From assembly GCF_001481685.1 (NCBI RefSeq), contig NZ_CP006867.1:990001-1022000 (forward strand): a stretch of DNA of 32,000 nucleotides. Direction: 5' to 3'. The notes beneath the pieces were generated by a model. It had not been told where the DNA came from. It ran no database searches and saw only the letters and a list, made by a program, of their open reading frames with translations. The position numbers and the translations under genes are program-made. This stretch comes from Ignicoccus islandicus DSM 13165 (GTDB taxonomy: Archaea > Thermoproteota > Thermoprotei_A > Sulfolobales > Ignicoccaceae). Shown in pieces: positions 6,504-21,558 of this stretch (positions are counted from its first letter, which is position 1; every line of letters starts with the position of its first letter).

Positions 6504-6579
6504 AGCCGGGTCGTCTAGCGGCCAAGGATGCGGGGCTTTGGCCCCCGTGACCGGGGTTCGAATCCCCGCCCGGCTACCA
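6504..6579 (+). tRNA. tRNA-Gln (anticodon UUG), CCA encoded
   Basis: Hand-folded cloverleaf. The acceptor stem AGCCGGG/CCCGGCU has an A1-U72 pair. The anticodon stem CGGGG/CCCCG carries loop CUUUGGC. The T arm is CGGGG-UUCGAAU-CCCCG. The discriminator is A, and CCA lies at 6577-6579. Confidence 0.95.
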
Positions 6580-15783: not shown

Positions 15784-17124
15784 ATGTTGGGAAGCCTTCC
15801 GGCCCTAGAGGCCTCTAGAAGCAAGGAGTTCATTAGCCAATGGATTCTCCTAAACCAAGTTCCAATAAGAAACATACCCCTAATAGTCCACTCTAGGCCA
15901 GGGTTCTCAATGAACAAGTTAATAGAATGGGCTTTCCACGAGACCATTGAAGGAGTTAAGAAGTGGTACGAAGCCGGAGGAGGCATTGCCACTTCCTACG
16001 ACAAGTTGCTGAATCACTTGGAAACAGTCGAAGGTCGGAGCTTACATAAATTGGTGAAATACGATAAGGTCACCAAGCTTACTAACGAACTACGTCGGGT
16101 TGACGAGCCCTTATTACTAACCGTAACTCCCAGTTTCCTAGCTAAGGAGGACCTCTGGAAAATAGTAGAAACAATGGAGGAATCCGTCTTCCCATTGCTA
16201 CACGTATACAACTTCCTAGACCTCAGCGATCCGAGGCTGATCGAACTCTATGAGTTAATATTGCAAGGAGACGTTAGCGTCAACGTACCAGTAATTTTCT
16301 CGCAGCAACTGGTCCCCGGCATAAGTAAGAGGTTCATGACCTTAGGGATGATTGGAGGAGCCGTAATCCAGTCCTTGTTACCTAAAGTGAACGAGTGGGA
16401 AGAATACTTGAAATTCAAGTATGAAGGAAAGTACGACAAGTCTACCGTAGAGTTCTTGAAGCTGTTCTCGCCAAGCTACAACATTGGTGAACCTTTCAAA
16501 TACGTACTTGTCAACTTAAACAAAGAGAACTTCGGTATAGAGGACCCGTTCATTGCAGAGGAGCTTCAAGTTCACGAAAGAGAGGGTAAGTTAATAGAAG
16601 CGGCGCCTTCCCTAGGTTTCGGTAACGAAGTAATTCCCCTACCGGACGTTTGGGAGAGGGTCGTAACGCTACCTTGGCAGTTGAGCGGTTTAGCGGAAGA
16701 GGTGGCCCTACATCTGCTAGGCTCCTATCCGCTAGTTAGAACGCTTGCTAGAACCAGGAAGAGGGCTGCCTATATATCTTCGATACTCAAGGGCTTATAC
16801 GAGAGGAGCTTCAACGCTCAACTCCAAACTATAAGGGGCATGATATCATTTATAAAAAGAGATTTGCTCAATGCCATTGAAGATACGGTAATAGCCTCAG
16901 CCCTCATAATAAGGGCTATGGACGTACTCTACGACTACGCTGAGAAATATGAGGGCATAGAGAATTGCGGTGAGCCTTGCGAAGCTATAAAGGCGTATTG
17001 CGAGTTGTACGAACAGTTCAGAGACGCGGAAGGGTTAGAGCCCGTAATAGAAGAGCTTGAAGAGGTGATAGTGGAGCTTACCGGAATGGGAGTAGAGAAG
17101 GCATGCGAAAGGAAAGCTTTATGA
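15784..17124 (+). CDS. Hypothetical protein (446 aa), first gene of an uncharacterised two-gene cassette
   Basis: This is a long ORF with coding-like composition. The start is uncertain (ATG 15784 or ATG 15910, MNKLIEWAF...). I recognise no motif. The stop TGA at 17122-17124 overlaps the ATG of the next gene. Confidence 0.6.
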   Translation: MLGSLPALEASRSKEFISQWILLNQVPIRNIPLIVHSRPGFSMNKLIEWAFHETIEGVKKWYEAGGGIATSYDKLLNHLETVEGRSLHKLVKYDKVTKLTNELRRVDEPLLLTVTPSFLAKEDLWKIVETMEESVFPLLHVYNFLDLSDPRLIELYELILQGDVSVNVPVIFSQQLVPGISKRFMTLGMIGGAVIQSLLPKVNEWEEYLKFKYEGKYDKSTVEFLKLFSPSYNIGEPFKYVLVNLNKENFGIEDPFIAEELQVHEREGKLIEAAPSLGFGNEVIPLPDVWERVVTLPWQLSGLAEEVALHLLGSYPLVRTLARTRKRAAYISSILKGLYERSFNAQLQTIRGMISFIKRDLLNAIEDTVIASALIIRAMDVLYDYAEKYEGIENCGEPCEAIKAYCELYEQFRDAEGLEPVIEELEEVIVELTGMGVEKACERKAL

Positions 17125-17711
17125 AAAGGAAACGTGCCCAGAGCTTAATGCAATTAATGGACATTGGTCTGAATACACCAATTTTCGTTGTTGTTACTCA
17201 GTCGAACTTAAGGGGACTGGAGCACTTCAAGAAGCAATGCGCAATACGGTTCGACGAACTAGCTTGCGAGCTACCCGAAGTAGACGCTTTAGTGGTACCG
17301 GGACCGCCCCCGCTCATAGCTCACTCTTCGCCATGCATTGCCAAGGAACTTCTCAGAGAGTTGGCTGAAAGGGGTTGCCCCTTCGAGGCCCAAGTTACGG
17401 ACGTCACGATAAAGGATAGCGTTGGAGCGGGCGCTTCCATAAAGTTCGACGGAAAGGTAATGGCTGAAGTAGCTATTGGCGGGAGCGTTAGGGACGTAAC
17501 TAGGAGGGGCAAGATAGACGCGAGGGCCTACTTAGAAGGTAATGCCATGAAGGTAATTGGCTCCTTGGGAGGCTTACTCGCCTATTGCACGTTCGAGAGC
17601 TTACTCGCACTAAGGAGAATGCCGGATGGAGTGCTGGAATGGAGCTGCCACGAAGGTAAATACGGCGTGAGGGGCGATCACGTGATCTTCTGGGAGTACC
17701 ATCCCTTGTGA
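17121..17711 (+). CDS. Small protein resembling a reduced PEP synthase/PPDK_N-type ATP-grasp domain
   Basis: About 196 aa from ATG 17121 (the track uses the in-frame ATG 17103). Three segments align by eye with E. coli PpsA N-domain blocks. LMDIGLNTPIFVVVTQSNLRGLEHF matches G..VP.GF..T..AF..F. GASIKFDGKVMAEVAIGGSVRDVTRRGKIDARAYL matches GVMFS.D...V.I.SAWGLGE.VV.G.V.PD.F.V. VLEWSCHEGKYGVRGDHVIFWEYHP matches DIEWAKDG..GKLFIVQARP. Confidence 0.5.
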   Translation: MKRKRAQSLMQLMDIGLNTPIFVVVTQSNLRGLEHFKKQCAIRFDELACELPEVDALVVPGPPPLIAHSSPCIAKELLRELAERGCPFEAQVTDVTIKDSVGAGASIKFDGKVMAEVAIGGSVRDVTRRGKIDARAYLEGNAMKVIGSLGGLLAYCTFESLLALRRMPDGVLEWSCHEGKYGVRGDHVIFWEYHPL

Positions 17712-17767: not shown

Positions 17768-18826
17768 TCACCGGGCCCTCTTGGGTAACACGTAAATTAC
17801 TCCCTTGTAGTTTATCACGTAAACCTCGTCGCCCACGGTCAAACCTATCGGACCTTCAGCTATTAAGTCTCTATCGTGTAACTTTATCGTCAAGGGATCT
17901 AGTCCAGTTACTTTAGCGGTCTCCAAGTTCTTCTCGTGAGGGTATACTATTCTCCCATTCTTTCTCATGGCCCACCAATGATCCACGTCTATAGATATTT
18001 CCTTGTTTTGATGAAGTAGGTGAACTCTGAATTTACCCTTTCCGATCGAAGTCAGAATGGCCGGTTCCTTATCCACTAAGAGACCATCGCCCGGTTCGAT
18101 TGCAGGTAACCTAACGCTTAACGTGAGCCTCTTCCTAACCCTCCCATCTCTCTTCATGCCTACTACGCTGTAGCTTTCAATTACCTTAGCGCCCAAGTTG
18201 AACCTCATCAACCTGGCAGTTTTCCTAGCCACCTCTTTACTAGCTAAGAGTACGTCCAGACCCTCCTTCTTGTCCACTAAGTCTACTACGTCTTCACCGT
18301 TATTAACCTTTGAGAAGAACTCTCCCGCGGTCCTCAACTCGTCATTGGTTACGTAGCCCCTCTCGGACCTTATTTGCAACGTAGCTTCGTAGTCGCCTCC
18401 GCTCTTCATTAGGCACTTTGGACAAACCCTCTTCTCTACGTTAAGGGGGACGGTGACGGTTTGCCTTACCTTCTTCCCGACTACATCAAGTTCGACTGTT
18501 ACGTCCGCTACGTACTTACCTCCTCGCGCTTTTCTAACGCTTAGGTCCACAACCTCGACTTCGCGTGCCGGTTCAACTGGCGCTATCGATTGCTCAATCA
18601 CCCTCTCAGCTAACCACCTTATGGTTTCATCGGGATCGTCGCTTCCTGGGTACCACGAGGACCCAATGAGGTAAGAACCGCATACCGGACATACTATTAT
18701 CTTCTGGTTAGCCTTTACCGAAACGAGCGTTTTCTCTTTAAGTAGACAATTCAAGCACAGCCCGTTTATTATCGGATTGTCCTCGCTCTCAATCGCCCCG
18801 CATCTATAGCAAAACCTCTTTAACAA
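17768..18826 (-). CDS. NMD3-family protein (archaeal homologue of the 60S export/biogenesis factor)
   Basis: 352 aa. The N-terminal Cys clusters are CYRCG...CLNCL...CPVCGSY and later CPKCL. The domain length is typical of archaeal NMD3. The start is TTG, with a TTTTAT TATA-like element about 35 nt upstream. Confidence 0.85.
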   Translation of the reverse strand: MLKRFCYRCGAIESEDNPIINGLCLNCLLKEKTLVSVKANQKIIVCPVCGSYLIGSSWYPGSDDPDETIRWLAERVIEQSIAPVEPAREVEVVDLSVRKARGGKYVADVTVELDVVGKKVRQTVTVPLNVEKRVCPKCLMKSGGDYEATLQIRSERGYVTNDELRTAGEFFSKVNNGEDVVDLVDKKEGLDVLLASKEVARKTARLMRFNLGAKVIESYSVVGMKRDGRVRKRLTLSVRLPAIEPGDGLLVDKEPAILTSIGKGKFRVHLLHQNKEISIDVDHWWAMRKNGRIVYPHEKNLETAKVTGLDPLTIKLHDRDLIAEGPIGLTVGDEVYVINYKGVIYVLPKRAR

Positions 18827-18867: not shown

Positions 18868-19737
18868 TTAAGTAATTAGTTTGCATCTCTTTAAATACTC
18901 TTCAAGAGACTCGCAAGGCATTAGGTAGGTTCTACCTAGGATACAATTTTCTATTTCGTTAACGAAGACTTCGTATAGTTCGCCGAGCGCTCTTTGGTAA
19001 TAGCTCTTGTAAGGCTCTTTGGAAAGCCTTTCCTTGAAGTTAACGCTACTAACTACTAAGTTCAATAAAGGCAAGAGCACTACGTCCTTCAATCCCTCGT
19101 GAACGTAGTATATGCTTTCAATGTTAGATAGAGCCATTAATATAGCTGTAGTGTAAGCGACCTCGGGCTTGAAGCCTCCAGTTAAGTTGGCCAAAACCCT
19201 CCATCCCCTTTCACATAACCTCAAGGCGCAACAAACTAGATTGAGCAAGCCTACGTAGAAGCTAGCGGGAGAGAAGCTCGAGCCGAGGTTTCCTAACGCT
19301 TTAACAACGTAGGTGCTTACCTTTGGCTTCAAGTAGTACCCATCTACGTCTATCCCCCTCTCCAAGACCTCTCTCAGTACGTAACACGAAGCCGCTCCCG
19401 TAGGGGTTTCAGAGCAAATTAGCGATACCTCGTCTAAGACGGGTTCCTTGCCGTTATTGATGTAAATCGACCTCATGAACTTTATTAAGGAGTTCAGTTC
19501 AGCGGACATAATTTCTGGATGTTCCCTAACTACTTCAACTAAGTCGTCTAGCTTAGCGTTAACCTTTTCACCGCACTTAACCTTGTTTGAGGCCAGCCTC
19601 TCCAGGTCCTCGTTCACGATCTCTTTCAACCGATCCTGAAGCTGGGCAGCGATGCCCCTACCTATGCTTCCCATAACCGAGTTAGTCAAAACGCTACTTC
19701 CTACCGTTATTATGTGACGAACGGGCTTCTCACTCAT
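18868..19737 (-). CDS. CARF-domain-like protein (Cas_APE2256-like), no recognisable effector domain
   Basis: 289 aa. The motif order is HIITVGSSVLTN (res 8-19), SAELNSL (78-84), LICSETPTG (106-114) and NLTGGFKPE (184-192). This matches my recollection of the APE2256/Csm6-Csx1-type CARF fold signatures (tvGTS..., ...TGG(T/F/Y)K). No RX4-6H HEPN motif is seen. Confidence 0.55.
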   Translation of the reverse strand: MSEKPVRHIITVGSSVLTNSVMGSIGRGIAAQLQDRLKEIVNEDLERLASNKVKCGEKVNAKLDDLVEVVREHPEIMSAELNSLIKFMRSIYINNGKEPVLDEVSLICSETPTGAASCYVLREVLERGIDVDGYYLKPKVSTYVVKALGNLGSSFSPASFYVGLLNLVCCALRLCERGWRVLANLTGGFKPEVAYTTAILMALSNIESIYYVHEGLKDVVLLPLLNLVVSSVNFKERLSKEPYKSYYQRALGELYEVFVNEIENCILGRTYLMPCESLEEYLKRCKLIT

Positions 19738-19771: not shown

Positions 19772-21124
19772 TTACTTTTTTGATAGAACGTTCTTATATT
19801 CATTAAATAACTCGTTAACGCGCTTCCTCCATTCGTCGAATTCGCTCGGGTTCTTGGGATAGTTCAAATACAGTTCCTTAACCTCCTTCATGTAGTCGGC
19901 CACCGTCTTCAGTTTCGATAGTAACGAGGGCTTCCCTAGGGCCTTGATTACCCTCATTAATTTATCAGTACTGCTTATCTTCAGATCGCCTTCTAATGAC
20001 GCTTTCAATAAGTCCTCTTCCTTTATTATTTTGTTCCTCATTCCGTAATTTATCTCCTCATCGCTTAAGGACTGTAAGAATATTCTGAAGACGTCCAGCG
20101 CCGCTTGCTTAGCGCCGTATGCTTCCATGAAGTCAACGTTGTATTGCCACAAGTTCTCTATGGTGGGCTCTTCCTCTAAGGCCTTCACAGCGTTCTTAGC
20201 TAGCAGGTAGGCGCCGAGCATTCCGGAACCTATGCCCCCGCCGTGTATAGGGTTAACTTGGTACGCTGCGTCGCCCGCAGCGGCGAATCCGTCTGCAACC
20301 ATTGTATCTAGGGGCCTCCTGGTTGGTACTACGCCCCCACCGGCGTGTAGGACCTCGCCCCCAATTCTATTAGCTAAGTACTTGTTAAAGTACCACATAG
20401 GATCCTTGTGTCCCACTCCGCCTTGAACTCCCAGACCCACGTTAACCTTCATTTTACCGGGATAGGGGAAGAGCCACCAGTATCCTCCCGGGGCTTTCTC
20501 TTGTGAAACGTAAATTCTAATGTACTCCTCGTCTTCTATTGCGTAGTTGATCTTCCTTATTTCCCTATAAGCTATAGCAGTGTCCTTGAAGTCGAGCTCT
20601 TCAGCTACGGGCCACGATTTCGGCAAGGCCCTTCTAATTATTGAAACTACGCCTGAAGCGTCTACAACCAATCTACTCTCTATAGATTCTACCTTATCGC
20701 CCCTCCTAACCGTTATTCCTTTAACCTTCCCGTCCTTCACGATAGGACCTAAGGCCCTAGTTGAGAAAGAGAACTCCGCCCCCGCCTCTCTAGCTAAAGA
20801 GTAAAGCCACTTGCCGAATCCCCTCCTGTTTAACATGAACCCTTCTCCGGGCACGGTCCAAACAGTTTTTTCGTCAGGAGAATATATTTTGGCTCCAACT
20901 ATCCTACCCTCAATGGCGTACTCAGGAGGTTCGCTTAAGGGTATTTTGCCTCCGAAATATTCTTTACTAATAGCATCTCCACAGACTTTGTTACCTATAT
21001 CGTCCTCGGACCTTAGGTCTACTACCAATACCTTGTAACCTTTCTCTGCAATAAATTTAGCGGCAGTTAGGCCGGTCGTACCGGCTCCAACTATAACTAC
21101 ATCGTACACTGTCGCCTTACCCAT
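19772..21124 (-). CDS. Geranylgeranyl reductase family flavoprotein (digeranylgeranylglycerophospholipid reductase-like)
   Basis: 450 aa. It has the FAD dinucleotide fold YDVVIVGAGTTGLTAAKFIAEKGYKVLVVD, an internal GDAA motif (AAAGDAAYQVNPIHGGGI), and a size similar to crenarchaeal GGR. Confidence 0.85.
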   Translation of the reverse strand: MGKATVYDVVIVGAGTTGLTAAKFIAEKGYKVLVVDLRSEDDIGNKVCGDAISKEYFGGKIPLSEPPEYAIEGRIVGAKIYSPDEKTVWTVPGEGFMLNRRGFGKWLYSLAREAGAEFSFSTRALGPIVKDGKVKGITVRRGDKVESIESRLVVDASGVVSIIRRALPKSWPVAEELDFKDTAIAYREIRKINYAIEDEEYIRIYVSQEKAPGGYWWLFPYPGKMKVNVGLGVQGGVGHKDPMWYFNKYLANRIGGEVLHAGGGVVPTRRPLDTMVADGFAAAGDAAYQVNPIHGGGIGSGMLGAYLLAKNAVKALEEEPTIENLWQYNVDFMEAYGAKQAALDVFRIFLQSLSDEEINYGMRNKIIKEEDLLKASLEGDLKISSTDKLMRVIKALGKPSLLSKLKTVADYMKEVKELYLNYPKNPSEFDEWRKRVNELFNEYKNVLSKK

Positions 21125-21480: not shown

Positions 21481-21558
21481 GCCGCGGTAGTATAGCCAGG
21501 CCTAGTATGCGGGCCTGTCGAGCCCGTGACCCGGGTTCAAATCCCGGCCGCGGCGCCA
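21481..21558 (+). tRNA. tRNA-Asp (anticodon GUC), CCA encoded
   Basis: Hand-folded cloverleaf. The acceptor stem is GCCGCGG/CCGCGGC. The anticodon stem CGGGC/GCCCG carries loop CUGUCGA. The T arm is CCGGG-UUCAAAU-CCCGG. The discriminator is G, and CCA lies at 21556-21558. Confidence 0.95.

Follow-up and report, generated by a model that had tools for sequence, protein, structure and literature searches.

The gene under study lies in a 32,000-nt stretch of the Ignicoccus islandicus DSM 13165 chromosome (hereafter the window; positions 990,001-1,022,000 of a single 1,394,664-bp contig with 44.9% G+C). It encodes a stand-alone CARF7 protein and is flanked by a geranylgeranyl reductase (GGR) gene upstream and the NMD3 gene downstream (Table 1). 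The gaps are short: 34 nt separate it from GGR (stop at 19772) and 41 nt from NMD3 (TTG start at 18826). A first-pass annotation, made from the sequence alone, had described the gene as an orphan CARF-like protein of the Cas_APE2256 type, and its open reading frame (ORF) and both gap lengths are right. The four motifs it quoted are all present in the translation, in the order given: HIITVGSSVLTN (residues 8-19), SAELNSL (78-84), LICSETPTG (106-114) and NLTGGFKPE (184-192). So are the three cysteines it had picked out towards the C-terminus, which belong to a total of nine (residues 55, 108, 118, 169, 170, 175, 265, 275 and 285).

Table 1. Coordinates of the CARF7 locus, its domains and motifs, and related genes elsewhere on the chromosome, with the residues aligned to Sis0811. 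Positions are those of the window unless marked as genome or chromosome positions; fractions are counts among the 61 family sequences.
Feature	Position	Strand	Basis or remark
CARF7 gene (Cas_APE2256, Crn1-like long stand-alone type)	18868..19737	-	complete ORF, 289 aa, ATG start
Geranylgeranyl reductase gene (GGR), upstream	19772-21124		GGR_cat 1.8e-18 and FAD_binding_3 (Pfam)
NMD3 gene, downstream	17768-18826		NMD3 1.6e-44 (Pfam)
CARF (Rossmann-like) domain with helical insertion, residues 1-229	19051..19737	-	strand/helix order of the model
Reduced C-terminal domain, residues 230-289, and stop codon	18868..19050	-	model and structural alignment
Motif I, G13-S14-S15	19693..19701	-	phmmer alignment to 7PQ2; S15 = S12 of Sis0811 / S11 of Sso1393
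Motif II, G188-F189-K190-P191-E192	19162..19176	-	alignment; K190 = K169 of Sis0811
S15 (Sis0811 S12)			S in 57/61
K190 (Sis0811 K169)			61/61
N19 (Sis0811 N16)			58/61
Y211 (Sis0811 Y189)			61/61
T111 (Sis0811 T100)			56/61
S109 (Sis0811 T98)			conservative; T or S in all 61
N82 (Sis0811 D75)			N in 58/61
H213 (Sis0811 Y191)			H in 57/61
cas10, sole copy on the chromosome	296.5-299.6 kb (chromosome)		FSGGDD and N-terminal HD dyad kept
CARF_m3-PIN gene, 450 aa	genome 348,953-350,305 (L026:3954-5306)	-	PADLOC 4.8e-39
csx1-like CARF region, pseudogene	genome 703,668-704,283	+	TGA, TAG and TAA in-frame stops

The immediate surroundings also agree with that first description, which had reported neither a HEPN motif nor any cas gene or CRISPR array. 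A motif check found R-X4-6-H absent from the 289-residue protein. None of the 33 other substantial ORFs in the window matched a Cas model (PADLOC, E<=1e-5); their PADLOC matches were to generic radical-SAM and methyltransferase models only. A genome-wide repeat scan placed no CRISPR array within the window, the nearest lying about 52 and 69 kb away.

The protein in the public database is shorter. It has 273 residues, equivalent to residues 17-289 of the 289-residue ORF, and its start cuts off strand β1 and motif I. Because the N-terminus read from the ATG at 19737 (window 19690-19737, minus strand) aligns with the family, the true start seems to lie 16 codons upstream of the deposited one. A promoter and terminator scan around the gene, using models of bacterial sigma-70 signals, gave nothing useful, and inspection by eye showed no clear archaeal TATA box for the CARF7 gene in either gap (34 and 41 nt).

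Elsewhere in the window, two overlapping ORFs of 446 and 202 aa (15784-17711, plus strand) run convergently with NMD3; neither has a Pfam match at E<=1. A tRNA-Asp(GTC) gene (21481-21558, plus strand) sits just upstream of the string formed by a small ORF, GGR, the CARF7 gene and NMD3, and a tRNA-Gln(TTG) gene (6504-6579, plus strand) lies farther away from that string. Nothing here points to an integrated element. We also considered, and rejected, that the CARF7 gene came from a virus or mobile element or encodes an anti-CRISPR: it has no PHROG match, shows no break in composition and is flanked by housekeeping genes.

The CARF7 protein is a member of the Cas_APE2256 family. The first-pass annotation had made this assignment from the motifs and had suggested profile searches and structure comparison as checks; the call holds in both. 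PF09651 (Cas_APE2256) matches at 1.4e-23 (83.7 bits, against a Pfam cut-off of 24.8) and TIGR02619 at 1.8e-18 (66.8 bits, against 37.45). The top PADLOC match is the stand-alone CARF7 profile (CARF7--CARF, 1.7e-35, residues 7-249), and by sequence (phmmer) the nearest proteins of solved structure are Sis0811 (7PQ2) and Sso1393 (3QYF), both Crn1 ring nucleases. When 1.84 billion representatives were searched exhaustively with HMMER, 158 relatives came up, of which only three reached E<=1e-30, one of them being the gene's own entry; the protein is therefore a divergent member of a broad family. A word-seeded homologue search returned one relative only, and the only close relative assigned to a named organism is one from Ignicoccus pacificus. 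We aligned the query with 60 relatives (61 sequences in all) and built a profile and a structure model on this alignment. The profile matches Sis0811 from end to end (9.5e-65) and also matches Cami1 (4e-21). The NCBIfam equivalog NF040951, named 'CRISPR system ring nuclease', scores 31.5 bits, far below its cut-off of 600; because that cut-off probably restricts the model to close relatives of its seed, the low score bars the equivalog name and not family kinship. To a specialist none of this holds a surprise, and the protein is an ordinary member of the known Crn1/CARF7 family, whose members degrade cyclic tetra-adenylate (cA4), the alarm molecule of type III CRISPR; its naming is routine annotation.

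One possibility that we rejected is that the protein is an effector with a hidden nuclease domain. It lacks the HEPN motif and has no RelE or PIN match in Pfam or PADLOC. Its PADLOC 'Csm6' matches are to short CARF-only profiles, and the CARF_RelE profile is matched over positions 4-178 of 294 only.

The predicted fold agrees with the family assignment. The AlphaFold2 model has a mean pLDDT of 87 and a pTM of 0.87, and its top Foldseek matches are Sso1393 and Sis0811 (E 6e-11 to 1e-9). VIA-align gives Z scores of 20.6 and 20.3 to 7PQ3 and 3QYF, with 230-238 residues aligned across model residues 4-270. Next best is Cami1 (Z 17.5), then, at Z 10-13, the CARF domains of other proteins, the short Crn1 enzymes among them; the CARF cores of Sis0455, Sso2081, Can2, Card1 and Cad1 align at Z 11-13 over model residues ~5-225.

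The structural alignment also redraws the C-terminal part of the protein. The first-pass annotation had set residues 210-289 aside as an unassigned extension. There is indeed an additional C-terminal domain, but the CARF core reaches as far as residue ~229, and residues 230-270 align with the C-terminal domain of the long-type Crn1 proteins. In the model this region consists of two helices (231-238 and 243-266), a strand (275-277) and a final helix (278-287). Because the model matches Sis0811 and Sso1393 over residues 4-270, we read the C-terminus as a shrunken counterpart of the winged helix-turn-helix (wHTH) domain of these long Crn1 enzymes. Most family members have a C-terminal region with a wHTH-like signature as in Sis0811. 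In the Ignicoccus clade, which comprises the CARF7 protein, the relatives P0002, P0003 and P0005 and the homologue in sister genome G009, the region is shorter, is without the 'GL(I/V)...W' signature and carries a 'KEPYK..Y' stretch together with a conserved cysteine (C265 in the CARF7 protein).

The residues that matter for catalysis in Crn1 can be located by alignment. [quoted passage not shown] By this comparison the catalytic pair and most of the cA4 contacts of Sis0811 are kept in the CARF7 protein (Table 1). Conservation across the family is strong in both motifs: G13 is found in 60 and S15 in 57 of the 61 sequences, and K190, G188 and Y211 are invariant (61/61), as is E80. Two contacts differ, with asparagine at residue 82 and histidine at 213; both changes are family-wide and so are not lesions of this gene. 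The corresponding residues of Cami1 are H and F. TsCard1 retains the Ser/Lys pair and leaves cA4 uncut (PMC9638899), so that conservation of the pair makes catalysis likely and does not prove it. Crn1 and Cami1, the two characterized branches of CARF7, both degrade cA4 (PMC12830947).

The description of the gene as an orphan is true of the window and not of the genome, which has one complete type III-B cmr locus about 700 kb away. The first-pass annotation had raised the possibility of a distant type III system, and a genome survey for cas10 bore this out: a Cas10 with an intact GGDD and a Csx1 are encoded on the same chromosome. The locus encodes, in order, Csx1, Cmr1, two small ORFs, Cmr4, Cmr5, Cmr6, Cas10 and Cmr3. 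The Csx1, encoded at 289.4-291.0 kb, is a CARF9-HEPN protein of 529 aa that keeps its RNFIAH motif. Between the CARF7 gene and cas10 lie 709 kb; on a circular replicon the opposite route would measure 681 kb. The repeat scan detected at least 12 CRISPR arrays, which have related repeats and are spread over the chromosome, most of them far from the cas genes examined. We found nothing in the literature specific to type III CRISPR in Ignicoccus.

A second gene outside any cas locus, about 50 kb from the cmr locus, encodes a CARF_m3-PIN protein, a likely second cOA-responsive effector. A profile search of the genome with PF09651 gave a single match, the CARF7 gene, and a search for Crn2 (DUF1874) gave none. 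The cmr locus itself has some irregularities. The longest reading of its csx1 ORF begins at a TTG (L005:9411-9413; genome 289,411). Between cmr1 and cmr4 (L005:12698-14000; genome 292.7-294.0 kb) lie a P-loop/AAA-like ORF of 209 aa and an ORF of 152 aa, the latter matching just a 65-residue piece of adenosine deaminase.

CARF7 and Cas10 tend to occur in the same genomes. Among 101 genomes of the same order, PF09651 detected CARF7 in 36 and the PADLOC model PDLC01444 detected Cas10 in 50; 28 genomes had both, 8 had only CARF7, 22 had only Cas10 and 43 had neither. Cas10 thus accompanies CARF7 in 28 of 36 CARF7-positive genomes (78%), compared with 22 of 65 CARF7-negative genomes (34%), figures that we give as description and without a statistical test because the sampled genomes are related. 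Some of the eight CARF7-only genomes are incomplete assemblies or may have Cas10 variants that the model misses.

Linkage is another matter. There are 15 cases in which CARF7 and Cas10 share a contig. In eight or nine the two genes lie within ~15 kb of one another (for example in G007, G008, G011, G049, G087 and G100), and in six they are far apart, including all three complete Ignicoccus genomes. All five genomes of the genus have one CARF7 gene and a Cas10. An unlinked Crn1-type gene is therefore common in the order and the rule in the genus.

The neighbours of the CARF7 gene do not travel with it. NMD3 is never adjacent to it in the sister genomes. GGR stands beside it only in the nearest of them, G020, where a kinase-like ORF intervenes and NMD3 is missing from the neighbourhood. 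In G009 the three genes are dispersed (GGR at 988 kb, NMD3 at 367 kb, CARF7 at 597 kb), and the CARF7 homologue is flanked by an M20 peptidase gene and a DUF3800 gene. We therefore rejected a functional link with GGR or NMD3, and the suggestion in the first-pass annotation that a CARF fold had been recruited to a non-defence role loses its footing where these neighbours are concerned. Metagenomic relatives have other surroundings again: P0005 is beside an M20 peptidase gene, and P0006 is beside a faint Cmr3 match and HEPN/NTase pairs. The closest metagenomic homologue, P0003 (43% identity, from a hydrothermal vent; L021:393-3207), is directly upstream of genes for S19e, a dsDNA-binding protein, L39e, L31e and eIF-6. 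That two CARF7 genes, this one and the one next to NMD3, should have ribosome-biogenesis neighbours is probably chance.

The CARF7 protein is also evolving quickly. Identity within the genus is 30-46% (BLAST/HMMER), as against 55-64% for NMD3 and 75-79% for GGR; such fast divergence is expected of a defence-linked gene. The syntenic orthologue of G020, downstream of GGR (L019:9561-10330, minus strand), is frameshifted: HLVTVGTSILRN does not share the reading frame of the remaining sequence, and stops come after HLVTVGTSILRN. Either the gene is a pseudogene or the assembly is wrong here; given the frameshift, CARF7 function may be dispensable.

We propose that the CARF7 protein is a Crn1-type ring nuclease, homodimeric and metal-independent, that degrades cA4 in trans for the distant Cmr system. 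We give this reading a probability of about 0.68. The first-pass annotation had named three candidate roles (a Crn1-like ring nuclease in trans, a cOA-responsive regulator and a CARF fold in a non-defence role), of which the first is the best supported, given the Cmr locus and the retained Ser/Lys pair. The gene, which we infer to be expressed, would yield a homodimer with a cA4 pocket formed across its two CARF domains. [quoted passage not shown] Cutting would need no metal; if specificity and catalysis are those of Crn1, it would first open cA4 into linear A4>P, from which two A2>P would then form. The cA4 itself would come from the only Cas10 of the chromosome, the GGDD-bearing subunit of the type III-B Cmr complex encoded ~700 kb away. 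Its removal should switch off the HEPN RNase activity of the Cmr-linked Csx1, and probably the CARF-PIN nuclease too, either after an infection has been cleared or under background noise.

A number of findings count against a ring nuclease: the replacement of D75 by N82 and of Y191 by H213, the reduced C-terminal domain, the ~700 kb to cas10, the NF040951 score (31.5 against 600 bits), the precedent of TsCard1, the frameshifted G020 orthologue and the eight CARF7-only genomes. The protein could instead be a sponge or buffer, a dimer that sequesters cA4 and raises the threshold for Csx1 and CARF-PIN without meaningful cleavage. We regard this as unlikely. The cA4-binding residues are largely conserved, TsCard1 binds without cleaving despite having the same Ser/Lys pair (PMC9638899) and the adenine contacts have changed at N82 and H213, all of which a sponge would accommodate; yet Sso1393, Sis0811 and Cami1, which is to say every characterized CARF7 protein, cleave cA4, and the conservation of K190 (invariant) and S15 (nearly so) points to selection on catalysis. 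We think it quite improbable that the gene is what remains, decaying or without function, of a formerly cas-linked accessory gene, or that its CARF domain now serves a signal outside CRISPR. Its ORF is intact and retains every invariant or near-invariant residue of the family, the model is confident, the cOA pathway of the same genome looks intact and one CARF7 gene has been kept in five of five genomes of the genus. Against these stand the lack of linkage to cas genes, the fast evolution within the genus (with neighbours at far higher identity), the frameshift in G020, the broken csx1 and the broken genes within the cmr operon of this genome, and the 8 of 36 CARF7-positive genomes without a detected Cas10.

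Regulation is a further possibility, and in our judgement a very doubtful one. Binding of cA4 would move the C-terminal domain, and the consequent binding of DNA or a partner would alter expression of defence genes or of a neighbour such as NMD3. The long Crn1 enzymes do carry a MarR-like wHTH, and those who described it speculate on a part in regulation (PMC8643638); the CARF-wHTH protein Csa3 is among the structural matches. That match is much poorer than the one to Crn1 (Z 9 versus 20), however, and the C-terminal domain of the Ignicoccus clade is shortened and without a recognition-helix and wing signature. The position of P0003 upstream of ribosomal-protein and eIF-6 genes, and of the CARF7 gene upstream of NMD3, might speak for regulation of a neighbour, but sister genomes do not conserve this arrangement with NMD3 and GGR. 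The same two gene orders, CARF7 directly upstream of NMD3 and P0003 directly upstream of S19e/L39e/L31e/eIF-6, are the hint for a more adventurous idea to which we attach hardly any weight: that the CARF7 gene of Ignicoccus moved away from the cas loci, lost its wHTH and was re-wired as a cA4 sensor whose cysteine-bearing C-terminus couples the alarm to housekeeping, for example to ribosome biogenesis.

On the ring-nuclease reading, the cOA pathway of this small hyperthermophile genome would be a simple one: a single Cmr system signals, Csx1 and CARF-PIN receive, and a dispersed CARF7 gene is the sole recognizable off-switch among the families searched (PF09651 and Crn2). A survey of ring nucleases has been limited to 6 kb around type III loci (PMC12409355). 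Surveys confined to a few kilobases of such loci would miss unlinked ring nucleases of this kind, and about 6 of the 15 same-contig cases are far from cas10.

How does the CARF7 protein compare with characterized cOA-binding proteins? It differs from the CARF-HEPN effectors Csm6 and Csx1 in being without the HEPN R-X4-6-H motif. With the transcription factor Csa3, which binds cA4, it shares an architecture in which a small C-terminal domain comes after the CARF domain; Csa3 belongs to another CARF clade, aligns at only Z 9 and has a wHTH whose signature is not recognizable in the CARF7 protein. The sensor domain of Cami1 (CARF7-RelE; 8PHB/8PHJ) is also a CARF7 domain, is much closer (Z 16.5-17.5) and has the GGFK motif in common with the CARF7 protein, and Cami1 has intrinsic ring-nuclease activity (PMC12830947). 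The difference lies in the RelE toxin domain, which is absent from the CARF7 protein; the alignment stops at residue 259 of the 384 of Cami1.

Among dedicated ring nucleases, the short Crn1 enzymes (Sso2081/Sis0455, CARF_m13) share the CARF fold (Z 12-13), a G-T/S-S motif I and the motif II lysine, and they use the same reaction chemistry as the long type (PMC10018336). They have a C-terminal helical lid and an arginine in motif II (G-R-K), whereas motif II of the CARF7 protein reads G-F-K, and the protein lacks the lid and carries an additional C-terminal domain. The long Crn1 enzymes (Sis0811, 7PQ2/7PQ3; Sso1393, 3QYF) are encoded in or near a type III locus, unlike the CARF7 gene at ~700 kb from cas10. 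Identity to them is ~20-23%; N82 and H213 take the places of D75 and Y191, and the C-terminal domain is reduced and without the wHTH sequence signature. Nevertheless, these are the proteins that the CARF7 protein most resembles: they belong to the same Pfam family, have the same two-domain layout and a similar size (275 aa, compared with 289), align at Z ~20, and have counterparts in the CARF7 protein for the catalytic Ser/Lys pair and for N16, Y189 and T100.
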